From a virus (taxonomy: Duplodnaviria; Heunggongvirae; Uroviricota; Caudoviricetes), in the IMG/VR virus record IMGVR_UViG_3300045988_118627: DNA of 24,996 nucleotides. One strand, written 5' to 3'. Shown piece by piece: positions 3,081-22,489 of this stretch (positions within the stretch are counted from its first letter, which is position 1; the number at the start of each line of letters is the position of its first letter). The notes under the pieces were generated by a model. It was not told the origin of the DNA and ran no database searches. It saw only the letters and a list, made by a program, of their open reading frames with translations. Position numbers and translations under genes: made by a program.

Positions 3081-3422
3081 ATGGCAATTAATGGCGCTGC
3101 AGCAACTGTTCCATTAAGCCCAGGTGAACGCCTGAATGGACTTAATCATATTGCGGAATTAAGGGCGAAAGTATTTGGCCTGAATATTGAGTCAGAGCTT
3201 GAGCGGTTTATTAAAGATATACGTGATCCACGGGATGTTAATTATGAACGAAATAAACGAGCACTGGCTGCTATATTCTTTATAGCAAAAATTCCAGCTG
3301 AACGTCATAGCATCAGCATTAATGAGCTGACCACTGACGAAAAGCGGGAGTTGATTAAAGTAATGAATCATCTTCGTGCAGTGGTGAGCTTATTTCCCAG
3401 ACGGCTAGCCATGCCGAATTAA
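3081..3422 (+). CDS. Hypothetical phage early protein (113 aa)
   Basis: Intact ORF in the early rightward operon with protein-like composition; no recognised motif. Confidence 0.5.
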   Translation: MAINGAAATVPLSPGERLNGLNHIAELRAKVFGLNIESELERFIKDIRDPRDVNYERNKRALAAIFFIAKIPAERHSISINELTTDEKRELIKVMNHLRAVVSLFPRRLAMPN

Positions 3423-3489
3423 CCAATTAATGAAATTCATGGCGTAAACCCGCCGGGCATTCCTTTATCTAAATTCAGGAGAATTGATT

Positions 3490-3723
3490 ATGCGTAATAT
3501 TGAAACCCTCTCGACTAAAACCGGACCGGATGACGCAGGACTTAATATTTTACTGACAGAGGCTCGTCTGGAAGAACGTCGGGCAAGAGCTGAAGCAATG
3601 GCAGCTCGCCTTGATAGCCTTGCGTGCCATATCACATCCCGCCAGCTAAACCACGTTGAAGCGGCTGAACTGCTGCGTGTGGCAGCTGAAGCAATCCAGA
3701 ACGAAGCGCAGGAGATCCACTAA
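3490..3723 (+). CDS. Hypothetical phage early protein (77 aa, Ala/Glu-rich helical)
   Basis: ATG at 3490 preceded by AGGAG (3476-3480). The track start at 3484 is a TTG. Confidence 0.5.
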   Translation: MRNIETLSTKTGPDDAGLNILLTEARLEERRARAEAMAARLDSLACHITSRQLNHVEAAELLRVAAEAIQNEAQEIH

Positions 3724-3950
3724 TGGCTGATGCAATGGATCTCGTACAGCAGCGCGTTGAAGAAGAACGCCAGCGTCATATCCATGCTGCCCGTGCCAAA
3801 ACGCCGGGCGTGTCCCGCGTGCTTTGCATTGAGTGTGAAGCGCCAATTCCGCCAGCACGCCGCCGTGCCATTCCGGGTGTGCAGCTTTGCATTACCTGTC
3901 AGGAAATCGCAGAGCTGAAAGGCAAACATTACAACGGAGGTGCTGTATGA
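3723..3950 (+). CDS. DksA/TraR-family C4 zinc-finger protein
   Basis: CIECEAPIPPARRRAIPGVQLCITCQE is a CxxC-N17-CxxC arrangement typical of TraR/DksA-type zinc fingers found in P2-like early operons. Its stop overlaps the dam start (ATGA). Confidence 0.7.
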   Translation: MADAMDLVQQRVEEERQRHIHAARAKTPGVSRVLCIECEAPIPPARRRAIPGVQLCITCQEIAELKGKHYNGGAV

Positions 3951-4804
3951 GCACCATCCTGAAATGGGCGGGAAATAAAACCGCCATTATGTCCGAACTG
4001 AAAAAGCATCTTCCTGCTGGCCCGCGACTGGTTGAACCTTTCGCGGGTTCCTGTGCAGTGATGATGGAGACGGAGTACCCCAGCTATCTTGTTGCGGATA
4101 TTAATCCTGATTTAATCAACCTCTATAAAAAGGTTGCTGCTGATTGTGAATCGTTTATATCTCGCGCCAGAGTTTTATTTGAGATCGCAAACAGGGAGGT
4201 GGCTTATTACAACATAAGGCAGGAGTTTAATTACTCAACTGAAATTACTGATTTCATGAAAGCGGTATATTTCCTGTATCTCAATCGTCACGGTTACCGT
4301 GGTTTATGTCGCTATAACAAGAGCGGGCATTTCAACATTCCCTACGGTAATTATAAAAATCCGTATTTCCCTGAAAAAGAAATTCGCGCATTTGCAGAAA
4401 AAGCCCAGCGAGCAACGTTTATCTGCGCCAGCTTTGATGAAACGCTGGCGATGTTGAAGGCGGGGGATGTGGTGTATTGCGATCCGCCGTATGACGGTAC
4501 GTTTTCCGGCTATCACACTGATGGTTTCACTGAAGATGACCAGTATCACCTGGCATCCGTTCTTGAACATCGGTCATCAGAAGGACATCCGGTCATTGTT
4601 TCTAACAGTGATACATCCCTGATCCGTTCGCTGTATCGCAATTTTACTCACCACTATATCAAGGTAAAACGCAGCATCGGTGTGGCAGCTGGCGAGGGTA
4701 AATCAGCAACAGAAATCATTGCTGTTTCCGGGCCGCGCTGCTGGGTGGGATTTGATTATTCGCGTGGCGTGGATAGTTCTGCCGTGTACGGAGTACGTGC
4801 ATGA
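3947..4804 (+). CDS. dam: DNA adenine methyltransferase (Dam-like, orphan N6-adenine MTase)
   Basis: From ATG 3947 (GGAGG RBS): [23 protein letters not shown]...VEPFAGS...[26 protein letters not shown]...VVYCDPPY, close to E. coli Dam motifs including DPPY. The track start at 3887 is rejected as a 5' extension. Confidence 0.88.
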
Positions 4805-7215
4805 GCCATGCCGATATGAACAACTGCTGCGGCTTTAACGAGGCTGCCGCAGCGTTCTCATGGAACAGCCCGAAAAAGGCCATTAACCCTTATCTGGACC
4901 CGGCGGAAGTTGCGCCGGTTTCTGCGCTTTCAAACCTGATCGCTCTGTACGCTGCCGATAACGAGCAGGAACACCTGCGCCGCGAGGCACTGAGTGATCA
5001 GGTCTGGGAGCGTTATTTCTTTAATGAATCCCGTGATCCTGTCCAGCGCGAAATGGAGCAGGATAAGCTCATTAGTCGGGCAAAGCTGGCGCATGAGCAG
5101 CAGCGTTTTAATCCAGATATGGTCATTCTGGCGGACGTCAATGCCCAGCCTTCCCATATCAGCAAGCCGCTGATGCAACGTATTGAATACTTCAGCAGCT
5201 TGGGCAGGCCAAAGGCTTATTCCCGCTATTTGCGTGAGACGATTAAGCCATGTTTGGAGCGACTGGAGCATGTACGCGACAGCCAGCTATCTGCATCTTT
5301 TCGTTTTATGGCAAGCCATGTAGGGCTGGACGGCCTGCTGATTCTGCCTGAAATGAGTCAGGATCAGGTGAAACGCCTGTCTACTCTTGTCGCTGCGCAT
5401 ATGAGCATGTGTCTTGATGCCGCTTGTGGTGATTTGTACGCCACCGATGATGTTAAGCCAGAAGAAATCCGCAAGACATGGGAAAAGGTGGCAGCAGAAA
5501 CCCTGCGACTGGATGTTATCCCGCCTGCGTTTGAGCAACTTCGTCGGAAAAGAAACCGCCGTAAACCCGTGCCCTATGAACTCATTCCGGGTTCGCTGGC
5601 GCGTATGTTGTGCGCCGACTGGTGGTACCGGAAATTATGGAAAATGCGTTGCGAATGGTGGGAAGAGCAGTTGCGTGCTGTCTGCCTGGTCAGCAAAAAA
5701 GCATCTCCCTATGTCAGCTATGAAGCCGTGATGCATAAACGTGAGCAGCGCCGTAAGTCGCTGGAGTTTTTCCGTTCTCATGAACTGGTGAACGAAGACG
5801 GCGACACGCTGGACATGGAGGATGTGGTAAACGCCAGCAGCAGCAACCCGGCGCATCGCCGCAATGAGATGATGGCCTGTGTTAAAGGTCTGGAGCTTAT
5901 CGCAGAAATGCGCAGTGACTGTGCCGTTTTCTACACTATCACCTGTCCGTCGCGTTTCCATTCCACGCTCAATAACGGCAGACCAAACCCGACCTGGACA
6001 AACGCGACGGTAAGACAAAGCAGCGATTATCTGGTCGGCATGTTTGCTGCATTTCGTAAGGCTATGCACAAAGCCGGGTTGCGCTGGTATGGCGTGCGGG
6101 TGGCTGAACCGCATCATGACGGCACAGTTCACTGGCACCTGTTGTGTTTCATGCGCAAAAAAGACCGCCGCGCCATTACTGCATTGTTGCGTAAGTTTGC
6201 CATCCGTGAAGACCGCGAGGAGCTGGGCAATAACACGGGGCCACGCTTTAAGTCTGAGCTGATAAACCCGCGCAAAGGTACGCCAACAAGCTACATCGCG
6301 AAATACATCAGTAAGAACATTGACGGGCGTGGTCTGGCTGGCGAGATCAGCAAGGAAACGGGTAAATCCCTGCGTGATAACGCTGAATACGTTAATGCCT
6401 GGGCGTCTCTGCATCGTGTTCAGCAATTCCGCTTCTTTGGCATTCCGGGGCGTCAGGCTTACCGTGAACTGCGATTGCTGGCTGGTCAGGCGGCAAGGCA
6501 ACAGGGGGACAAAAAAGCAGGTGCGCCGGTACTGGATAACCCGCGCCTTGATGCAATCCTGGCTGCTGCTGATGCTGGTTGTTTTGCCACCTACATCATG
6601 AAGCAGGGCGGCGTACTGGTTCCCCGCAAATATCACCTCATCAGAACTGCTTATGAAATCAACGAAGAGCCGACCGCCTATGGCGATCACGGTATTCGTA
6701 TTTATGGCATCTGGTCACCCATTGCAGAGGGCAAGATCTGCACTCATGCGGTGAAGTGGAAAATGGTTCGTAAGGCCGTTGACGTTCAGGAGGCGGCAGC
6801 CGACCAGGGCGCTTGCGCCCCTTGGACTCGTGGCAATAACTGTCCCCTTGCTGAAAATTTGAACCAACATGAGAAAGATGAATCAGCAGATGGGGATACC
6901 AGAACGGACATTACCTGCATGGATGACAAGGAATTGCACGATTACCTGCACAGTATGAGCAAAAAAGAGCGCCGGGAACTGGCAGCAAGATTGCGCCTGG
7001 TTAAACCGAAACGGCGTAAAGACTACAAACAGCGAATTACAGAGTATCAGCGTCAGCAGCTCGTCTATGAACTGAAGTCCAGAGGATTTGATGGCAGCGA
7101 GAAAGAGGTCGATTTGCTCCTTTGCGGTGGCAGTATTCCGTCAGGAGCAGGCCTGCGTATCTTCTATCGGAACCAGCGTTTGCAGGAAGATGATAAGTGG
7201 CGGAACCTGTATTAA
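4801..7215 (+). CDS. A: Replication initiation protein A (rolling-circle HUH endonuclease, P2 gene A family)
   Basis: 804-aa ORF with the HUH motif [13 protein letters not shown] and a tyrosine region [11 protein letters not shown], in the P2 A position after the early genes. Its start overlaps the dam stop (ATGA). Confidence 0.9.
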
Positions 7216-7368
7216 TTACGCGGGTTAACAATTCGTGCTCTTAATAATACCAGGCATATCAGGCTGATGAACGTAAAAAAACGTTTTACATCAGTAAGAT
7301 TATTATATACTGTAAATATAAACAGTGGTTATATGTACAGTATTGCGTATGGTGTTATAGGAGGAAAG

Positions 7369-7557
7369 ATGCAGGACTATTTTTTGGAGTCTTTGAAGCT
7401 CCAGCGCATTGATTTTTTTCTTAAGCTTGTAGCGGCTAGTGAGTGTAGTGATGAAGAGAAGGGGCTAGCTCTGCAGTGGGTTTCTGAATTGACTGATGAG
7501 TTGATGGCGAAAATTCGAAGCCATGAATACAGTAGGTCGATGGATGTAATCAGTTGA
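7369..7557 (+). CDS. Hypothetical small acidic protein (62 aa) in an AT-rich cargo region
   Basis: ATG 7369 preceded by AGGAGG (7356-7361); followed by a hairpin terminator. No recognisable domain. Confidence 0.35.
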   Translation: MQDYFLESLKLQRIDFFLKLVAASECSDEEKGLALQWVSELTDELMAKIRSHEYSRSMDVIS

Positions 7558-7589
7558 GCTTGTTTCGTTAGGACTTGATAAGGGAACCG

Positions 7590-7614
7590 AAAAGGGGCAT
7601 TAAGCCCCTTTCTC
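7590..7614. terminator. Bidirectional intrinsic terminator between convergent genes
   Basis: AAAA-GGGGC-ATTAA-GCCCC-TTTCTC: GC stem with an A-tract on one side and a T-tract on the other, between a + gene ending at 7557 and a - gene ending at 7625. Confidence 0.5.
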
Positions 7615-7624
7615 ATAAGTTGAT

Positions 7625-7924
7625 TTAGTTGTTACCCAAAGAGCCGGCCATGGCTGCATATTTAATTTCTTCGCTGGGTATTTCAGGATGTAGTTGAATT
7701 TGCCTGATGATATAGCCAGGAACTTCTTCACTCCACAGTTTCGCCGCGTCCTTACAGACCTTATACGCGAAGTCTCTATTCTCAAAGGCATAGGATTTTC
7801 CGTATGCATATTGCTGACAGGCATGAACATAAGCTCCGAAGTCGCCGTCTTTATCTGGCAAAGCACATCCAGCTAAGGCTATGATGATTGCTACTAACGT
7901 AAAGGAGAAAGTTATACGTTTCAT
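7625..7924 (-). CDS. Small lipoprotein (99 aa), unknown function
   Basis: MKRITFSFTLVAIIIALAGC... has a signal peptide with lipobox LAGC. It is on the opposite strand to the flanking phage operons, like an accessory (moron) gene. Confidence 0.6.
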   Translation of the reverse strand: MKRITFSFTLVAIIIALAGCALPDKDGDFGAYVHACQQYAYGKSYAFENRDFAYKVCKDAAKLWSEEVPGYIIRQIQLHPEIPSEEIKYAAMAGSLGNN

Positions 7925-7980
7925 GGTCTCTTTCTAAGCGTTTAGCATTATTTAACTAAGGGGTATCTGCCGTGATTTGG

Positions 7981-8009
7981 TAGTCCCTGATATATATTCT
8001 CAGGGACTA
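7981..8009 (-). repeat. Perfect 10-bp inverted repeat (TAGTCCCTGA ... TCAGGGACTA) between the two lipoprotein genes
   Basis: Arms at 7981-7990 and 8000-8009 with a 9-nt AT loop, immediately downstream of the 8033..8839 gene on the minus strand. No clear U-tract, so it may be a weak terminator, an RNA stability element or a protein-binding site. Confidence 0.4.
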
Positions 8010-8032
8010 TGCTGAAGTAGCTTTAATTTTGA

Positions 8033-8839
8033 TTATTTAGAAAGGTACTTATCTCTAAGTTGATTCAGTCTGTCAGCATCGCGTTCTGAAAACTCGGCGT
8101 CACCATAGATCGATTTCCCATCTGCGTCTTCAAGGCCAATGACTGTGACGGTAAATATAGCATCAGCCGGAACTTTAAGTTTTCCCCAATCAGAGTATCT
8201 ATTAGGGGCTAATTTCCAGTTGGCTTTCTCACCTGGTTCCAGACCTCCAGAAATTTTATAGTTGAAGACGTCAGAGAACCAAGGGACGCTTCTTCCTGGG
8301 CTGGCAATAACTCCTTTGAAGAATACTCTGGCAACCGCTTTGTCTGTTCCGTTTTCAACGCTAATATCCAGAATTGGCTGATCATTGCCGTAATCCTCTT
8401 TCTGGAAATAAAAACGGGAACGTTCGACCTTGAAGGCTTTCATTTTTTCCGCAGCCTGTGTTGCAGAGGTTTGTTTGGCTTCCAGTTCTTTTATTTCTTG
8501 CAGAGCCTGTTCTTTCTCTCTCTTCTCACGCTCAAGGCGAATAGTTTGTGCGTAATTTATAACCTCATCACCAGTTTTACCTTCCAACGCTGACTTAATT
8601 TTTGTTTCGTAGACGTCCCCAGAAGACGTTCCAGCCTGCATTAGCTCTCTCATGTTGATTTGGCTAAAGGCAACGACTTTAACTGCATCATCAAACTGAG
8701 CTTTTTTATCTGCAGGTAAGGACTCTCTTACTTTTTGAATGGACTCTTTCATCGACTGATCGCTTGATGCATCGATCTTCGGTTTGTCACAAGCAGTAAG
8801 CAGCAGAGCAAAAGCAATTACGCCAGTTAATTTCTTCAT
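8033..8839 (-). CDS. Lipoprotein with a central coiled-coil region (268 aa), unknown function
   Basis: From ATG at 8839: MKKLTGVIAFALLLTACDKPK... (lipobox LLTAC) followed by a charged helical segment (EREKREKEQALQEIKELEAKQ). The longer track ORF from 8911 is rejected as a 5' extension. Confidence 0.6.
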   Translation of the reverse strand: MKKLTGVIAFALLLTACDKPKIDASSDQSMKESIQKVRESLPADKKAQFDDAVKVVAFSQINMRELMQAGTSSGDVYETKIKSALEGKTGDEVINYAQTIRLEREKREKEQALQEIKELEAKQTSATQAAEKMKAFKVERSRFYFQKEDYGNDQPILDISVENGTDKAVARVFFKGVIASPGRSVPWFSDVFNYKISGGLEPGEKANWKLAPNRYSDWGKLKVPADAIFTVTVIGLEDADGKSIYGDAEFSERDADRLNQLRDKYLSK

Positions 8840-9361
8840 ATCCCTATCCCAATCGTAAAAAAACAAGGCTAATCCTAACAGGATTAGCGGGCATGACAAA
8901 CTCATAGCCATATAGGTGTGCTGTATAAATTAGCGGGATGAGAAAGCCTGCACAGACCCTCATGTTGAAACTTGATTTTAGCTCAAAAGAGCTGACACTA
9001 AATAACTGCGCGGAATAATGCTCCACTTTCGGTTAGCCCTTGGCCCTTGCTGGGTAAGGCGTGGGGCCGTTTTCTTCGCCTGATCCTGCTGTATCTGGCC
9101 TACAGTATGTTGTCCTTACGCGACATGCCACATGTCAGTAAACGGCAGGTGTAGCAGTATTAGACGCAGCTATTTAGTGTGTATTAAGCTGGCTCATATT
9201 TATGACTGGTTTCAAGGTTTGACCGATTTTCATGTCATGCATGTCTATGCTGCATGAGTTCGCATGATCGTTTGAGGATCGGTTTGGCTAAGACATGCCA
9301 GAACTGGCGGGCTTTTGCTCATGTCATGCAGGTGCATGAAAACTACTACATAAAGCGGGCA

Positions 9362-9380
9362 GGCGTGGCGGGGATACGAG
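9362..9380. other. Candidate cos (cohesive end) site of the P2/186 family
   Basis: GGCGTGGCGGGGATACGAG shares its first 13 nt with the 19-nt cohesive ends of 186/P2 as recalled (GGCGTGGCGGGGAAAGCAT / GGCGAGGCGGGGAAAGCAC). It lies in a 620-bp non-coding region with repeated CATG-containing motifs. Confidence 0.35.
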
Positions 9381-9532
9381 CGCGCGTTAAGCCATATAAG
9401 AGTTATATATTGATTTGATTGCTGGACATACATACAGTATCGCTCTATCATCTAATAAATCTTAGGGTATTTGACAATGTTTGGATAAAATGGAACCTAA
9501 CTTATTCATAATCCGCTAAACAGGGATGTCAG

Positions 9533-10447
9533 ATGCCATACCAATTGGTAGAGCTTAGCCCCGTAGCTAACGATCTTGAACAGTTAGGAACCAAAGAGAA
9601 GTTTTGGTTCTATTTCTCCGATGACACTGTAAATTTGCAGTTGTTTAAGTACTCTAGGCCAGGTACTGGCGAGCATTGGTCTGAAAAGTGTGCTGCTGAG
9701 TTATGTCATTTGCTTAACATTCCACATGCTAGCTATGATTTGGCGCGATACAATGGTCGATTCGGTGTGGTGACTCAGAATATCATTCCATCTGGTTTCC
9801 GGATGGTAATGGGAAATGAAGTGCTTCACAGTTCGACATTCGATTATCCTGGGCCTTTACAAGCCGGGGAAAAGCCGGTAAGGGTCAGAGAACACACTGT
9901 CACAAGGGTCTTGGGTTGTTTAGATAGGGAATCTATCAAGCCTCCTCCGAGTGTATATGATCTAACCGGGCTAAATGCAGCAGATGTATTTTGTGGATAT
10001 TTGATGCTCGATGCACTTGTGAGTAATCAAGATCGCCACCATGAAAATTGGGCAATCATGCTTAACAATGAAACTGGTGAGCAGTTTTTGTGTCCAACAT
10101 ACGATCATGCCGCTAGTTTAGGAAGGGAGATGTTAGATGATGAGCGTAACGAACGGCTTAATACTAAAGATAAAAATCGACAAATCCCATGTTTTGTAAG
10201 AAAAGCTCGCTCTGAGCTATTCAAAGCAAAAACTGATAAAAAGCCCTTGCTGACTGTTGAAGCATTTCAACATGCAGTTGAAGGGAGAGTTGCCGCTCGC
10301 GACCATTGGTTAGGTAAGTTGAGCGTTTTAACAGAAGATTCCATTACAGATGTGTTTAACCAAGTGCCTTCATCGTGTATATCCGACAGTGCACGTAGAT
10401 TTGCAACGTTAATGGTAATGGAAAATCGCAGAAGGTTACTAGAATGA
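9533..10447 (+). CDS. HipA-like Ser/Thr kinase core (HipT-like, lacking the HipA N-terminal subdomain); candidate toxin/effector
   Basis: 304-aa ORF with LGTKEKFWF (resembles the HipA GxQEK ATP-binding motif), ALVSNQDRHHENWAIML (catalytic-loop-like D-x-H-x-x-N) and CPTYDHAAS (resembles the HipA aPxYD metal-binding motif). Its stop overlaps the next gene's start (ATGA). Confidence 0.65.
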   Translation: MPYQLVELSPVANDLEQLGTKEKFWFYFSDDTVNLQLFKYSRPGTGEHWSEKCAAELCHLLNIPHASYDLARYNGRFGVVTQNIIPSGFRMVMGNEVLHSSTFDYPGPLQAGEKPVRVREHTVTRVLGCLDRESIKPPPSVYDLTGLNAADVFCGYLMLDALVSNQDRHHENWAIMLNNETGEQFLCPTYDHAASLGREMLDDERNERLNTKDKNRQIPCFVRKARSELFKAKTDKKPLLTVEAFQHAVEGRVAARDHWLGKLSVLTEDSITDVFNQVPSSCISDSARRFATLMVMENRRRLLE

Positions 10448-11184
10448 CTAATACAAACTCCGTTTACGTCGCATGGCAGGCACCAGATACCAGAGACTGG
10501 CATGTTGTTGGTAACTTGCAAGAGCGCAAATCGGGGTATGTTTTCAGGTATACCAAAGGTGCTCTTAAATCTTCTAAATTTACAAAGTTTAGCGGCATGA
10601 GTGATGTTCGTGAAACTTATGTATCGGAAGAATTGTTTCCTCTTTTTAAAAATCGCCTTTTATCACCGAGACGTCCAGAGTATCCGAGTTTCATTAAATG
10701 GCTTGGATTTGAAGAAGATAAGGTAAATCCTATCGATATTCTTGCTCGCTCGGGAGGCTTACGAAGCACTGATCAGCTGCAGATTTTCAAAAAAATTGAT
10801 TTTGATTCTGATGGTAACTTTGAGCATTTTTTCTTCTTACATGGACTTGGTTACTTGAATAGCTTAGCTAATGCTCGTGTATCTGAATTGAAACCGGGGC
10901 AAATTTTGCGTCTTTGCTTGGATCTTCAAAATGAATACGATGGGGATGCTGTTGTCGTTCGTGCAGATAAACCAGCTGAAATCGTTGGTTACTGCCCTAG
11001 GTATTTAAGTAATGACATCAAGAAGATGTTATTGGATGATCCAAAATCAATCACTTTAACGGTCGAAAAGATTAGCGATGATGCTCCTCATAACTATCGG
11101 TTATTATGTAAATTATCAGGGGTACTAAGCCAAGCCTGTCAATCGACGCTGATTCCTCAAGATGAGTTTGAACCTATTGAGTAA
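10444..11184 (+). CDS. Fusion protein: HipA N-terminal-subdomain-like (HipS-like) region plus C-terminal HIRAN-like domain
   Basis: N-terminal part ...EELFPLFKNRLLSPRRPEYPSFIKWLGFEEDKVNPIDILARSGGLRSTDQLQIF resembles the HipA N-domain (FNFFDNLLPEG...LARRLGL...LLGRDCAGAL, from memory). C-terminal part ...LRLCLDLQNEYDGDAVVVRADKPAEIVGYCPRYLSNDIKKML fits the HIRAN consensus (L.L.rEpdNpyDpnAi.V...G.lGYvPr). Confidence 0.6.
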   Translation: MTNTNSVYVAWQAPDTRDWHVVGNLQERKSGYVFRYTKGALKSSKFTKFSGMSDVRETYVSEELFPLFKNRLLSPRRPEYPSFIKWLGFEEDKVNPIDILARSGGLRSTDQLQIFKKIDFDSDGNFEHFFFLHGLGYLNSLANARVSELKPGQILRLCLDLQNEYDGDAVVVRADKPAEIVGYCPRYLSNDIKKMLLDDPKSITLTVEKISDDAPHNYRLLCKLSGVLSQACQSTLIPQDEFEPIE

Positions 11185-11218: not shown

Positions 11219-12259
11219 TTATGGGGCTATATCTAGCGAGTAGGTATCAAACCGTATCGCCTCCTTGCCAAGCCAATCATTCATCTCCTGTAATCGCTTT
11301 TGTAGTGGCATTAGCTCATTTCGGACGAATACACGGCTTGCCTTCTCCACATCCCCAAACCCCCCAACATTATTCGGCATAATCCCCATCATTTGCGGTG
11401 GCACACGGTGCGCTGCCATCATGTCATCGCGGCTGACATTTTTGATATTCAGAAACTCATCCTTCGCCGCGACTTCTGACAATGGGATGATCTGAAGTCC
11501 GTCCTTTTTGCCGTTAGGCGAGTACATAAACAGATTGCGGAAGTTACCTGGTCCTTTGGCGCTTTTCATCGCGTTACGGAGGTTGTTTACATCCTCCTGG
11601 TTCTGCGCGGCGTCGGTCATGTACATGATGAAGCCTGCATGACTGCCGTTAATGTAATACTTTCGACGGAACAGCGTGGCGGACTCGTTGAGCAGGGCTG
11701 ACGGAATGGCAGAAAGATAACCGGGCAGGCCGTAGATCTCCTGGTTGATATCCGGTTCCATCAGGTGAAAAATGCTGCCTTTCGTGAACTGATACGGTTG
11801 CGTTGTTATGCCGTATTGCACAAACCAGTAGGTATCCAGGTCTAATCCACGTCGGGTGTATTTTGCCAGGGCAGGCTCAAGGGCGATAACTTCACCGAAT
11901 CGGTTCGTGCGTTTCTCCAGGTAGGCGTTACCAAATACCAGATAGTCCTGCACAAAACGCGAAAAAGCCTGCTGGCTGAGCAGCGGATGAGGGATATAGG
12001 TACTGGTCAGAATGTTGCACTTTACTGCAATCGGGGAACTGTGATGCACGGCGGCGCGGAAGGTGCGCGCCAGTCCGTCAAAGCTGACGGGCGGCTCATA
12101 CCAACGGTCCATCTGTACGCATTCCACATAGTCCAGCAGTTCACGGCGGTCCAGAACAGGAACGGGATCGCCGAAGCTGAATGCTTCGGCTGTAGTTTGA
12201 CTTTTAAGCTGGATCTGTTTCGTCGCCGCAGCTCGGTTCTTCTTACTCTTTCCCATCAA
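11219..12259 (-). CDS. Q: Portal protein (P2 gpQ family)
   Basis: 346-aa ORF directly downstream of and overlapping (ATGA) the large terminase gene, in the P2 Q position; size and gene order match the P2 portal. Confidence 0.88.
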   Translation of the reverse strand: MMGKSKKNRAAATKQIQLKSQTTAEAFSFGDPVPVLDRRELLDYVECVQMDRWYEPPVSFDGLARTFRAAVHHSSPIAVKCNILTSTYIPHPLLSQQAFSRFVQDYLVFGNAYLEKRTNRFGEVIALEPALAKYTRRGLDLDTYWFVQYGITTQPYQFTKGSIFHLMEPDINQEIYGLPGYLSAIPSALLNESATLFRRKYYINGSHAGFIMYMTDAAQNQEDVNNLRNAMKSAKGPGNFRNLFMYSPNGKKDGLQIIPLSEVAAKDEFLNIKNVSRDDMMAAHRVPPQMMGIMPNNVGGFGDVEKASRVFVRNELMPLQKRLQEMNDWLGKEAIRFDTYSLDIAP

Positions 12260-19984: not shown

Positions 19985-20011
19985 GCCCAGTGGCGATCTG
20001 GGCTTTATTTT
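19985..20011 (+). terminator. Intrinsic terminator after S
   Basis: GCCCAG-TGGCGAT-CTGGGC followed by TTTATTTT; a GC-rich hairpin inside an otherwise AT-rich island, overlapping the stop of the minus-strand KAP NTPase gene. Confidence 0.5.
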
Positions 20012-21878
20012 AATTTTCAATGCTTTGCTTTAATTTATCTATTGCGGGAGTTAAACAATCATTTATGAGCTCATCGATTTGTAATGATAATATATTTGAG
20101 TTTATTTGAGTTTTCTTTTCAATTAGCTTTCTAATTAGCTCACGGTGGAAAAAACGCTCTGCAGAAAGCTCTTTTAGATAAGGGGATTTGTTGTATCGGT
20201 TTTTTATAGCATAGCCAAAGAAATGCATCTCGGTTGAGTCTACCAGTATTTTTGTTAGTTGTTCAGCATCACCAAAATAAAGAACTGGTTTGTCGTGAAA
20301 TGAATAAATATCTTTGTTGTTGAAATTTAGATGTGCGTAATATTCATGATTTCCGGACTGTATTAATTTGAATATCTTTTGAGCGTCTTGGCTAAGTTGA
20401 TATGCAATTAACACATTTTTCTTTTGTTCTATGTAATTAACAAGCTCCTTGAATTCCCTAGTTTCTTTGCAATGAAAAGTTAATCCTCCCCATCGCTCAT
20501 CCTTAATGTCTTCATCAAAAATTTCATAACTAGTTTGTATCATTCCTTTTTCTGCTAAAATATCAACAGCAGAGTAGGCTAAGTTTGTTAAATAGTGTTC
20601 GTTGATGGGTTTTATATGTTCTCTGGATAAATGAAGTAATAATCCGTAAATATGCTTAAGAACATGCTCGTTCAATATTTCAAAATTAATAAGCGTATGA
20701 AGTGTTGAATTGTAATTTTCCTCAAATTCTGTGTATTTTAATCGATCATAATTCCAAAGTTGTGTCCATGGCTCAATTGTTTTATTAGAAACACTGACAA
20801 ATGTTATTAATTCAGATATTATTTTTTCTTGATTGATTTTCTGATTGTCAATTATATCGATCCAGGTATCCTCGTCTAAGATTAAATTTGACAAATAAGT
20901 TGTACCATATTTTTCAATTAAATTGGATGTGTATTTATTATCATCATCTATTTTATATGTTAACAAGTCAGAAACGGTTCGTTTTATTTTATTAGATTCA
21001 AAATAGAGTATAAAATGTAATTGATATAATCTGAGTGTCAAATCTGAATTTTGCTGAAACTGTGCTGGTAATATTTTGAATATTCTTTCAAAAAAAGAAA
21101 TTTGCCTTTCAATTAATCTAATGTTATTACACTCTGAAAGAGTGAGTAAGCTCTCAATATTTTTTATGTTCAGAATGGTGTTGAGTTCGCTAGTTATATT
21201 TTTTAGAAAATATTCGTAGGCGTGAGAATGTTGAGGTTGATATTTGAAAGTTATACCTATAACTTTTTCTTTTGCATCTAAATAAATACCATCATGATTT
21301 TTATTTCTAGCGGGGTTTAATATTTCTCTCTCATTGGCGATAATCAAAACCTTGCATTCTTTTTCTTCAACGAAATTATTTATATAACCAAATATAGAAT
21401 TCCAATCTAATTCGCAGCGTTCAAGATCATCAAATATCAATATGGTGTTTTCTGGTGAGTAGTAAAAGTCTTTAATACTTACGTTGGGTAGTTCTGGGGA
21501 GCCCTCTACACTTGTAACGAATGAATCACTTAAATCAATCTTAAGTGTGCCTTTAATTAGTGCCTTAGTTAGTGTGCCAGCAAGCAACATGCCTTTAGAT
21601 GAAAGGAAGGGATGCATTTGCTTGAAAATTATTTCGTCAATTTGTTCGGTGGATTTTATTCCATATAATGAGATCATTAATGGCTTAACTTCCCCTTTTA
21701 GTGATTCTTCATTCATTAATTTACGGACAAACCATGTTTTCCCGCTTCCCCATTCGCCGTCAATCATTACTGCGAAATTAGGGGATTTTTCAAGATCCAC
21801 TAAATAATTAAGATATGAGGTTAGCTCTTCATTGTAATTCATTGGATTGTAAGATCCTTCATACAATTTGAAAATCAC
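20010..21878 (-). CDS. KAP-family P-loop NTPase (candidate anti-phage/abortive-infection cargo)
   Basis: 622-aa ORF with Walker A MIDGEWGSGKTWF and Walker B ILIFDDLERC, the GxWGxGKT and hhhhDDLDR/ER motifs of KAP NTPases. It is very AT-rich, on the strand opposite the late genes. Start is GTG at 21878 or ATG at 21842. Confidence 0.8.
   Translation of the reverse strand: MIFKLYEGSYNPMNYNEELTSYLNYLVDLEKSPNFAVMIDGEWGSGKTWFVRKLMNEESLKGEVKPLMISLYGIKSTEQIDEIIFKQMHPFLSSKGMLLAGTLTKALIKGTLKIDLSDSFVTSVEGSPELPNVSIKDFYYSPENTILIFDDLERCELDWNSIFGYINNFVEEKECKVLIIANEREILNPARNKNHDGIYLDAKEKVIGITFKYQPQHSHAYEYFLKNITSELNTILNIKNIESLLTLSECNNIRLIERQISFFERIFKILPAQFQQNSDLTLRLYQLHFILYFESNKIKRTVSDLLTYKIDDDNKYTSNLIEKYGTTYLSNLILDEDTWIDIIDNQKINQEKIISELITFVSVSNKTIEPWTQLWNYDRLKYTEFEENYNSTLHTLINFEILNEHVLKHIYGLLLHLSREHIKPINEHYLTNLAYSAVDILAEKGMIQTSYEIFDEDIKDERWGGLTFHCKETREFKELVNYIEQKKNVLIAYQLSQDAQKIFKLIQSGNHEYYAHLNFNNKDIYSFHDKPVLYFGDAEQLTKILVDSTEMHFFGYAIKNRYNKSPYLKELSAERFFHRELIRKLIEKKTQINSNILSLQIDELINDCLTPAIDKLKQSIEN
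21848..21865. promoter_or_regulatory. Candidate late-promoter activator dyad TGT-N12-ACA upstream of V (pV-like)
   Basis: TGTaagatccttcatACA sits about 50 bp upstream of the V start codon, at the right edge of the AT-rich island and overlapping the 5' end of the KAP NTPase ORF. Confidence 0.35.
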
Positions 21879-21910
21879 TATTTTCTTTTGATTTCATGCA
21901 AACTGCAACC

Positions 21911-22489
21911 ATGAACGCACAACTCACAGAAATCATGCGCCTTATCACCAACCTGATCCGCACAGGTGTAGTCACCGAAGTGGACCGGGAAAACTGGCTT
22001 TGTCGGGTGAAAACGGGCGACCTTGAAACCAACTGGATTAACTGGCTGACGCTGCGCGCGGGTAATGCCCGCACATGGTGGCGACCATCGGAAGGTGAGC
22101 AGGTGGTGCTGCTGAGTCTGGGCGGCAATCTGGAAACCGCCTTTGCGCTGCCCGCTGTCTATTCGAATCAGTTCGCACCACCGTCGGCGTCGATGGACGC
22201 CTGTGTGACAGAACATCCTGACGGTGGCTGGTTTGAATACGAACCCGCTACCGGGCGCTGGTATGTCAGGGGAATCAAATCCATGGTCATTGAAGCTGCC
22301 GACAACATCACCCTGAAAACCAGTGAGTTTGTGCTGGAGGCCGACCGCACGCGTATTAACAGCGAAATGGTAATCAATGGTGGCGTTACCCAGGGCGGCG
22401 GTGCAATGAGTTCTAACGGAATTGTGGTTGATGCACATCAGCATACTGGCGTCCTGAAAGGCGGCGACACAACCGGAGGCCCGGTATGA
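21911..22489 (+). CDS. V: Baseplate assembly/spike protein V (P2 gpV family)
   Basis: From ATG 21911: MNAQLTEIMRLITNLIRTGVVTEVDRENWLCRVKTGDLETNWINWLT...SSNGIVVDAHQHTG resembles P2 gpV as recalled. The track start at 21896 is 5 codons upstream. Confidence 0.85.
   Translation: MNAQLTEIMRLITNLIRTGVVTEVDRENWLCRVKTGDLETNWINWLTLRAGNARTWWRPSEGEQVVLLSLGGNLETAFALPAVYSNQFAPPSASMDACVTEHPDGGWFEYEPATGRWYVRGIKSMVIEAADNITLKTSEFVLEADRTRINSEMVINGGVTQGGGAMSSNGIVVDAHQHTGVLKGGDTTGGPV

Follow-up and report, generated by a model that had tools for sequence, protein, structure and literature searches.

The IMG/VR virus record IMGVR_UViG_3300045988_118627 is a 24,996-nt stretch of DNA (hereafter the window) with the backbone of a 186/Fels-2-like member of the P2 family (Peduoviridae). 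Behind the replication endonuclease gene A and a small conserved gene, orf62, this prophage carries a moron, located at 7559-9237 in the variable slot next to cos, with two minus-strand genes for a 268-amino acid (aa) protein of the DUF6694 family and a 99-aa protein, both predicted to be lipoproteins. We regard it as very likely that this cassette is a real two-lipoprotein moron. Judged from its genomic context, the cassette could have an anti-phage role at the level of the envelope, namely superinfection exclusion, and we put the probability of such a role at roughly 0.5.

A two-lipoprotein cassette in the place of dinI/tumB

The backbone genes found in the window comprise integrase, CI, CII, Fil, Dam, A, portal, terminase, capsid, holin, lysozyme, LysB/LysC and baseplate. 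When the window was compared by BLASTN with its relatives 813R9 and Fels-2, it was colinear with them over 3213-7558, the homology ending exactly at the stop codon of orf62 and appearing again at 9238-9386. In 813R9 and Fels-2, orf62 is followed by a gene of the DinI family (TumB), and in phage 186 the corresponding order is p95-LexA site-tum-t95a-orf97-t95b. The GC content falls from 0.50-0.55 within A to 0.39-0.45 over 7100-9050, so that the AT-rich DNA noticed after the A stop codon in a first-pass annotation of this stretch is real (a drop from about 0.52 to about 0.42). A moron, in the sense of Juhala and Hendrix, is an extra block that is absent from relatives, deviates in base composition and has its own promoter and terminator. 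The segment 7559-9237 displays an exact breakpoint against 813R9 and Fels-2, the dip in GC content, a conserved promoter-like site and a putative terminator hairpin.

The A-Q interval corresponds to the published P2 defence hotspot, gpA-gpQ, which is known to hold anti-phage systems (Rousset 2022, PMC9122126), and the cassette lies between A and Q, adjoins cos and varies among related prophages. The first-pass annotation had called the two lipoprotein genes accessory, which is upheld by their position as cargo in this variable region (PMC9122126) and by their absence from close relatives. Its comparison with the P2 genes old and tin stands as a likeness of position, but the backbone is 186/Fels-2-like and the gene that has been replaced is a dinI-like tumB. 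The P2 cos sequence was not found with up to three mismatches allowed, and cos was instead located with the help of phage 186: when the right end of the 186 genome is joined to the left cohesive end, the junction aligns with 9323-9374 of the window, and the cut falls at 9362. In the virion, the lipoprotein cassette would therefore form the extreme right end of the genome and the PDC-M03 genes, described below, the extreme left. The A-Q interval thus offers two slots for cargo that are independent of each other, one from tumA to cos, occupied by the lipoprotein cassette, and one from cos to Q, occupied by genes for a HipA-like kinase and a HIRAN protein.

A promoter scan placed a sigma-70-like site upstream of the DUF6694 gene (Table 1). 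Its extended -10 element, TGTTAGGAT, is kept in all five aligned copies of the cassette, and its -35 element in four of them (exact in three, TTGTCC in the copy L050), being lost in plasmid pEH10, where the homology breaks. A palindrome, GCTAATCCTgttAGGATTAGC (8888-8868), overlaps the promoter-like site, and its left arm is not kept in L050, the most distant copy. The 108-bp spacer between the two lipoprotein genes contains a stem-loop (-18.5 kcal/mol, z -4.9) that none of 200 shuffled sequences equalled in stability, and the stem core AGTCCC/GGGACT survives in cassette copies of 74% and 89% identity, while the flanks diverge. Between the convergent orf62 and lipoprotein genes, where a bidirectional terminator had been proposed earlier, a hairpin is indeed present and folds on both strands (plus strand -14.2 kcal/mol, z -1.95; minus strand -15.1 kcal/mol, z -2.70); that it functions as a terminator is plausible. 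A simple terminator scan missed this hairpin because the stem takes up part of its T/A run. Rfam gave no match over 7100-9600. The remaining 330 bp or so of the segment (8912-9237) likewise contain no convincing open reading frame (ORF) and no Rfam match; they include a second promoter-like site on the plus strand (8992-9019) and a terminator-like hairpin on the minus strand (9026-9010).

The block 8880..7590, which includes the hairpin at 7591-7611, has a colinear counterpart of 74% identity on a 145-kb SSU5-like phage-plasmid, indicating that the two genes travel as a unit. In the phage-plasmid, the cassette follows AAA_5-DnaE-DUF7740 and precedes gp32-exonuclease-RecA. The full segment was found in 20 of 5,426 complete E. 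coli genomes, all copies being more than 99% identical, and in two of these carriers, ECONIH4 (NZ_CP026399.1) and CAVP776 (NZ_CM176338.1), the insertion sequence (IS) element IS1 interrupts the DUF6694 gene. Three small plasmids hold the DUF6694 gene alone, adjoining IS elements. Judged from the sequences, the two lipoprotein ORFs are not the product of chance, as their mature parts are conserved while their signal peptides vary, and they match PHROG and Pfam families.

Lipoprotein signals and predicted sorting

Lipoprotein signals were analysed with a self-coded rule of the PROSITE PS51257 type, which calls for a positive n-region, a hydrophobic h-region and the motif [LVI][ASTVI][GAS]C with the Cys at position 15-35. 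Both proteins passed, the 99-aa protein with MKR...LAG followed by C20 (signal MKRITFSFTLVAIIIALAG before the Cys) and the 268-aa protein with MKK...LTA followed by C17 (signal MKKLTGVIAFALLLTA before the Cys). The rule was also passed by 15/15 homologues of the 99-aa protein and by 113/120 of the DUF6694 protein, and in both families the lipobox Cys is invariant while the sequence of the h-region drifts. The earlier reading of both minus-strand genes as encoding lipoproteins, with the lipoboxes LAGC and LLTAC, is thereby reinforced. The end coordinate of 8911 that was given with it had to be revised, this being the upstream ATG of a mechanical 292-aa ORF. RefSeq and all homologues start at the MKK at 8839, and the 292-aa reading was accordingly rejected in favour of 268 aa.

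In E. coli, sorting follows the +2 rule, by which a lipoprotein with Asp at +2 avoids the Lol pathway and is retained in the inner membrane and one with Ala at +2 proceeds to the outer membrane. The residue after the lipid Cys of DUF6694 proteins is Asp in Enterobacterales (CDK/CDQ) and mostly Ser elsewhere. With its Asp at +2, the DUF6694 lipoprotein is most likely kept on the periplasmic face of the inner membrane, and the Ala at +2 of the 99-aa lipoprotein predicts sorting to the outer membrane.

The DUF6694 lipoprotein

Residues 7-101 of the 268-aa protein match PF20404 (DUF6694) with 79.2 bits, against a gathering cut-off of 24.3, and the same profile is matched by all 40 aligned homologues. 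The protein also matches phrog_7468 and is named 'DUF6694 family lipoprotein' in RefSeq. An AlphaFold2 model based on the 40 homologues reached a mean predicted local distance difference test score (pLDDT) of 86, with a helical domain (27-85), a 44-residue helix of about 6.5 nm (90-133), a beta-sandwich (136-246) and a C-terminal helix (252-265). The first-pass annotation had assigned a long coiled-coil segment to the larger lipoprotein. Its counterpart in the model is the confidently predicted single helix 90-133, and oligomerisation through a coiled coil stays a prediction. Two motifs of the beta-sandwich, SPxRxVPW and ISGGLEPGE, are invariant among the homologues.

The family is rare, with 128 relatives among 185,579 species (one genome per species), and identity between its members is 40-55% across Gamma- and Betaproteobacteria, Desulfobacterota, Bacteroidota, Acidobacteriota and Planctomycetota. 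Pfam, NCBIfam and PADLOC profile searches with both lipoproteins returned nothing beyond DUF6694, and a lenient Pfam scan of the 40 homologues gave a single weak match to DUF5067 for the C-terminal domain. In PADLOC-DB v2 (E <= 0.01), no model was matched by either lipoprotein or by orf62, and two downstream genes strongly matched PDC-M03A/B. Sequence-profile searches of the PDB found nothing, and a literature search for DUF6694 found no paper mentioning the family. The two lipoprotein families thus appear to be uncharacterised, and the adjacency to tape-measure genes and the defence-island pattern described below appear to be new observations; prophage morons encoding envelope or exclusion proteins are already a known kind.

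The 99-aa lipoprotein

The 99-aa protein matches phrog_7666 and belongs to a small family, with 14 clusters among 5.8 billion proteins, all from Enterobacteriaceae and at least 71% identical except for one frameshifted copy. An exhaustive HMMER scan of 1.8 billion representatives revealed no further relatives; HMMER matches of the protein below E 1e-20 were dismissed as repeat-protein artefacts. Three Cys residues are invariant in the family, the lipid Cys, C36 and C57. The AlphaFold2 model of the protein, with four helices, is weak (pLDDT 64.5), and its fold matches are therefore not meaningful.

The gene is cargo in three types of phage, namely P2-like phages, SSU5-like phage-plasmids and a lambdoid prophage. 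Beyond the P2-like hotspots, it was found in 110-kb SSU5-like phage-plasmids of Klebsiella and Buttiauxella, in the interval between lysis and terminase genes of a Kluyvera lambdoid prophage and at a Salmonella locus, where it adjoins a hok gene and dsbB. A different, Cys-rich lipoprotein of 139-145 aa is encoded directly upstream of it, at a distance of 10 bp, in the phage-plasmids and in the Kluyvera prophage. The 99-aa gene thus recurs as cargo of phages, with more than one kind of lipoprotein as its upstream partner. The Cys-rich lipoprotein (5571-5990 in locus L006, 4571-4990 in L036 and 5556-5990 in L012) has the lipobox VGC/TGC and gave no Pfam or PADLOC match.

orf62 and its LexA box

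The 62-aa ORF on the plus strand behind A, reported in the first-pass annotation, is present as described and is preceded by a ribosome-binding site (Table 1), but it does not belong to the accessory module in which it had been placed. It is instead a conserved core gene with a LexA box upstream, and corresponds to the upstream half of tum in Fels-2 and PSP3. The SOS-box consensus has a single match in the whole window, where 0 would be expected by chance, and this match lies in the promoter region of orf62. Both 813R9 and Fels-2 have kept this box, and in phage 186 its counterpart in the alignment is the p95/LexA region. The orf62 product matches phrog_698 (E 1e-37), and its copies are 84-98% identical in 58 of 66 phage records and below 60% in the other eight. 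It is 95-97% identical to the ORF after A in Fels-2, 813R9 and dozens of Klebsiella, Salmonella and E. coli P2-like phages, with 95% for STM2728 of Fels-2, and in the phages with inspected annotation (813R9, Fels-2) the copy lies directly 3' of A. In Fels-2 and PSP3, tum is split in two and the upstream half is the antirepressor (Lemire et al. 2011, PMC3121763, citing Bunny et al. 2002). BLASTP revealed no similarity between orf62 and Tum of phage 186, and the assignment as tumA hence rests on orthology to Fels-2, the LexA box and the literature.

orf62 thus combines the LexA box, the position after A and the orthology to the upstream half in Fels-2/PSP3 that mark a Tum-type, LexA-controlled antirepressor. 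Given these features, the match to phrog_698 and the wide conservation, orf62 is by its sequence the LexA-controlled induction switch of the prophage, with antirepressor activity predicted, and is core rather than accessory. The locus resembles the p95-tum-orf97 region of 186 and the tumA-tumB(dinI) region of Fels-2/PSP3 in its position between A and cos, its LexA-box promoter and its first gene. It differs in that the dinI-like second gene and any homologue of orf97 are gone, an oppositely oriented cassette, insulated by the putative terminator, standing there instead.

Within 7308-7557 the LexA box and the tumA-type gene are intact, and the DinI-like tumB that follows in Fels-2, PSP3 and 813R9 is missing. 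Given this loss, SOS induction of the prophage may be modulated differently. The annotation of the locus is thereby corrected, in that the small ORF is the SOS switch, and its usual DinI-like modulator has been lost from the prophage.

Genomic neighbourhoods of DUF6694 genes

In a survey of IMG/VR, ORFs were called on 71 viral contigs with DUF6694 and the neighbours were clustered, which gave 68 loci. Twelve are P2-like hotspots as in the window and one is a phage-plasmid locus, the 99-aa gene being found 108 bp downstream in 11 of these 13. In 24 loci the order is tape-measure (phrog_24), DUF6694 and then the minor tail proteins M-L-K-I; in 13 loci a tail assembly chaperone (phrog_1749) is followed by DUF6694 and then tape-measure (phrog_2854); and in five loci DUF6694 precedes tape-measure (phrog_31957/973). 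The DUF6694 gene thus directly adjoins a tape-measure gene, in the same orientation, in 42/68 loci and across three unrelated tail modules. One of the tail-module copies shows a GC dip to 0.42, against 0.52-0.55, and has its own intrinsic terminator, both classic features of a moron. Among cultured phages, DUF6694 is carried by E. coli phage PHB10 (after tape-measure), Pseudomonas phage PseuP_222 (between K and I) and Marinobacter phage AS1 (near the integrase).

Bacterial copies were often found close to defence genes. At four Alcanivorax/Alloalcanivorax loci (L120, L121, L129 and L166; about 8001-8800), a WYL regulator is followed by DUF6694, BrxA, one further gene and BrxC; the WYL (BrxR-like) regulator is divergently transcribed at these loci, and DUF6694 is inserted at the head of the bacteriophage exclusion (BREX) locus. 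At a further locus, L128, a pair of WYL and DUF6694 genes precedes type I HsdR. In other bacterial loci, DUF6694 adjoins type I HsdR/HsdM or a 2,200-aa DUF4011 helicase-nuclease. The defence genes near DUF6694 also include AriA (PARIS-like), GajA/PtuA-like ATPases, PD-Lambda-1, PDC-S06/S23, Cas1, a DRT reverse transcriptase, ThsB-TIR (Thoeris), SymE, SocA and toxin-antitoxin genes. In a Salmonella lambdoid prophage (L022, 7001-8388), DUF6694 is located in the nin-type region, flanked by a PLD-family nuclease gene on one side and by vapBC on the other. At this locus, a gene for a 185-aa zinc-ribbon protein abuts the DUF6694 stop codon, which may be a different two-gene arrangement.

An envelope-level anti-phage role

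Superinfection exclusion at the envelope, the role to which we give even odds, agrees with the first-pass annotation, which had named the two proteins as candidates for it; the genomic associations fit an envelope function expressed by the prophage, and the function itself is still deduced from context. Its support comes from the features of a moron that moves as a unit, from the tape-measure and defence-island neighbourhoods of DUF6694 homologues, from the recurrence of the 99-aa gene as cargo in three types of phage, from the position in the gpA-gpQ hotspot, from the candidate defence genes PDC-M03 and PDC-S49 that flank the cassette or lie elsewhere in the prophage, and from orf97 of phage 186, which occupies the same slot and is annotated 'expression from plasmid blocks 186 infection'. 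In such a role, the cassette would be read on the minus strand from the sigma-70-like promoter, through the DUF6694 gene, the stem-loop and the 99-aa gene to the hairpin terminator, which would also stop the convergent, SOS-induced tumA transcript. The lysogen would produce and export both lipoproteins, which would be lipidated and come to be anchored in its envelope. The DUF6694 protein at the inner membrane would hold its conserved beta-sandwich out on the helix of about 6.5 nm, and the 99-aa protein would go to the outer membrane. Jointly or singly, the two would interfere with incoming phages at the envelope stage, and the step most likely to be blocked would be delivery of the genome across the periplasm by the tail tip or the tape-measure protein. 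That the cassette acts by blocking injection is a more tentative proposal than the anti-phage role as such.

Neither lipoprotein showed homology to the characterised exclusion proteins Cor, Llp, Ltp and HK97 gp15. The closest functional analogues would be HK97 gp15 and the Gram-positive Ltp, neither of them homologous. gp15 is a superinfection-exclusion moron expressed from the prophage, encoded in the slot between chaperone and tape-measure genes, and blocks genome entry in a tail-dependent manner (Cumby et al. 2012; reviewed in PMC3594210). DUF6694 homologues occupy the same chaperone-to-tape-measure slot in 13 contigs and lie just after the tape-measure gene in 24 more. However, gp15 is a small, YebO-like integral inner-membrane protein rather than a lipoprotein and has no sequence relationship to DUF6694, and the DUF6694 gene of the window is found in the cos-proximal slot of a myovirus and not in a tail module. 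Ltp of the Streptococcus thermophilus phage TP-J34 is a prophage protein with a lipid anchor; located at the outer surface of the cytoplasmic membrane, it excludes superinfecting phages at DNA injection (PMC3952083), which is the mechanism proposed here for the DUF6694 protein. In contrast, Ltp comes from a Gram-positive system, is encoded in the lysogeny module and consists of helix-turn-helix repeat domains, a fold unrelated to the predicted arrangement of helical domain, stalk and beta-sandwich.

Cor (phi80/N15/HK022) and Llp (T5) are small phage envelope lipoproteins, with a disulfide in Llp, the genes of which are linked to those for tail and receptor-binding proteins. The 99-aa protein resembles them in size, in its Ala at +2 and in its invariant Cys pair, but has no sequence or profile similarity to them and is predicted, with low confidence, to be helical. 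To our knowledge, envelope exclusion in Gram-negative bacteria is represented by just a few proteins, all of them narrow and unrelated to one another (Cor, Llp, SieA, gp15, Imm and Sp), and almost all of the anti-phage systems discovered recently are cytoplasmic. Among the cargo of the P2 hotspot, WP_001580533 and WP_001580534 (orf62 and the 99-aa protein) are listed in Table S5A as 'hypothetical' (Rousset 2022, PMC9122126). The systems validated there are cytoplasmic, and the main text describes no lipoprotein or other envelope system from the hotspot, the word 'lipoprotein' occurring 0 times in it (PMC9122126).

A broader possibility, which we put forward tentatively, is that DUF6694 is a widespread and so far unrecognised single-gene envelope defence, carried by temperate phages, phage-plasmids, plasmids and defence islands in at least six phyla, which would intercept a conserved step in genome delivery by tailed phages, the 99-aa lipoprotein being an optional partner in Enterobacteriaceae. 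The target would then be the tape-measure/tail-tip channel, or a conserved envelope component that the channel needs. Were the family anti-phage, its range, which extends over phages, phage-plasmids, plasmids and defence islands and from Enterobacteria to Bacteroidota and Acidobacteriota, and its repeated position beside tape-measure genes would suggest that phage genome delivery has a weakness that is both general and conserved. It would also offer a cheap experimental handle, one gene of 0.8 kb, with carrier phages of E. coli and Pseudomonas already in culture.

Several observations weigh against an anti-phage role. The strongest counter-argument is the conservation of the family, as 40-55% identity across phyla is unusual for an arms race with phage tail proteins and suggests that the target, cellular or chemical, is itself conserved and is not a phage protein that evolves fast. 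The proximity to tape-measure genes may reflect just permissive insertion sites in antiterminated late operons, and the association with defence islands is a qualitative one. Ordinary chromosomal copies with no visible mobile or defence genes also exist, between ldhA and ydbH in Enterobacter and after rplS in Pectobacterium. The two lipoproteins are not obligate partners, since DUF6694 stands alone in most contexts and the 99-aa gene is more often found behind the 139-aa lipoprotein. With regard to sorting, a Lys at +3 after Asp at +2 may weaken retention in the inner membrane, and outside Enterobacterales the +2 residue of DUF6694 proteins is mostly the Ser mentioned above.

Alternative explanations

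The cassette could also be lysogenic-conversion or host-fitness cargo unrelated to phages, changing the envelope so that, for example, the lysogen adheres, tolerates stress or, as with lambda Bor or TraT, resists serum or complement. This is the best of the alternatives, though we consider it doubtful. The anatomy of cargo and moron fits it equally well, and the high conservation of DUF6694 would fit a conserved cellular target. Not all cargo of the P2 hotspot serves defence, as cytolethal distending toxin and partition systems are also found there (Rousset 2022, PMC9122126), and DUF6694 is found on small plasmids adjoining IS elements and glycosyltransferase genes and in some chromosomal copies without defence neighbours. 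However, the family is found in free-living marine, sediment and soil bacteria of many phyla, in which a serum-type function would make no sense, and neighbourhoods of the tape-measure, BREX, restriction-modification and PARIS types, repeated as they are, would not be expected of a generic fitness factor. A profile search likewise gave no similarity to the Bor, TraT or Lom families.

Periplasm-facing lipoproteins could instead serve as immunity proteins or inhibitors, in the manner of MliC/PliC/Ivy, against an exogenous, envelope-active toxin or enzyme such as a colicin, a tailocin, a type VI amidase or lipase, a lysozyme or the peptidoglycan hydrolase of a tape-measure protein. The conserved beta-sandwich surface with its invariant SPxRxVPW and ISGGLEPGE motifs and the disulfide-type Cys pairs of the 99-aa protein would suit such a function, orphan immunity genes do ride mobile elements, and an inhibitor of a tape-measure lytic domain might well be encoded next to a tape-measure gene. 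We nevertheless find this unlikely. None of the contexts examined has an adjacent effector or toxin gene, the known families of lysozyme inhibitors and of type VI immunity proteins gave no match in either fold or sequence, and conservation across phyla is atypical for immunity proteins.

It is also improbable that the two genes are unrelated and possibly decaying passengers, brought next to each other by an accident of insertion history and without a joint function. A different type of phage has a colinear stretch, 74% identical, with the pair, the 108-bp spacer with its stem-loop and the terminator, which argues for long-term co-inheritance as one unit. Moreover, almost every copy has kept both reading frames intact, and the mature regions look conserved when set against the variable signal peptides. 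What an accidental pairing would explain readily is that plasmids, tail modules and defence islands carry DUF6694 by itself, that the 99-aa gene usually follows the different 139-aa lipoprotein, and that IS1 has entered the DUF6694 gene of two E. coli genomes.

Finally, a spanin-like lysis pair, in which an inner-membrane coiled-coil protein and a small outer-membrane lipoprotein would fuse the membranes at lysis, is extremely improbable and was rejected, since the superficial resemblance (an Asp-at-+2 lipoprotein with a long helix, followed by a small Ala-at-+2 lipoprotein) is outweighed by the LysB/LysC (Rz/Rz1-like) genes that the same prophage already has by its holin and lysozyme genes, by the position of the cassette outside the lysis cassette, opposite to and far from the late genes and with its own promoter, by the occurrence of DUF6694 alone in non-phage defence islands, by the larger protein being a lipoprotein without a transmembrane helix, and by the lack of a C-terminal interaction motif and of proline-rich o-spanin character.

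Other cargo in the prophage

Table 1. Features of the lipoprotein locus, its flanks and the other cargo genes (positions in the window)
Feature	Position	Strand	Size	Remarks
Gene A (replication endonuclease)	4801-7215		804 aa	agrees with RefSeq annotation of an E. coli prophage having the identical segment
LexA (SOS) box	7308-7327	+		TACTGTAAATATAAACAGTG; promoter region of orf62; core phage regulation, not cargo
orf62	7369-7557	+	62 aa	predicted TumA-type half of split Tum antirepressor; GGAGG upstream (ribosome-binding site)
Cargo cassette	7559-9237	-		replacement segment, takes the place of dinI/tumB; BLASTN against 813R9 and Fels-2
Hairpin, putative bidirectional terminator	~7591-7611	both		AAAGGGGC-ATTAA-GCCCCTTT; between convergent orf62 and lipoprotein genes
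99-aa lipoprotein gene	7625-7924	-	99 aa	predicted lipoprotein
Intergenic stem-loop	7981-8009	-		TAGTCCCTGA...TCAGGGACTA; in 108-bp spacer between lipoprotein genes
DUF6694 lipoprotein gene	8033-8839	-	268 aa	predicted lipoprotein
Sigma-70-like promoter	8868-8899	-		-35 TTGTCA (8899-8894), 16-nt spacer, extended -10 TGTTAGGAT ending at 8872; promoter scan
Conserved cos flank of backbone	9238-9386	+		92% identity to 813R9; kept in 80 phage records
cos cohesive end	9362-9380			GGCGTGGCGGGGATACGAG; cut at 9362; alignment to phage 186 ends
HipA-like kinase gene	9533-10447	+	304 aa	with next gene, PADLOC PDC-M03A/B pair (E 2e-122 and 7e-93)
Couple_hipA/HIRAN protein gene	10444-11184	+	246 aa	overlaps HipA-like kinase gene
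Portal gene Q	11219-12259
622-aa protein gene	20010-21878	-	622 aa	PADLOC candidate PDC-S49, E 6e-135
188-aa ORF	21878-22444	-	188 aa

The pair of genes for a HipA-like kinase and a HIRAN protein, which lies between cos and the portal gene, corresponds to 'HIRAN-kinase' in the supplement of Rousset 2022 (PMC9122126). This pair is independent of the lipoprotein cassette, because E. coli S56 has an identical cassette and different cargo between cos and Q. A third cargo insertion, made up of the two minus-strand genes at the end of Table 1, is located between the tail/virion-morphogenesis genes and the baseplate gene V. At this third site, the related prophage of E. coli S56 carries genes for a DUF4435 protein and an AAA ATPase (PARIS-like).

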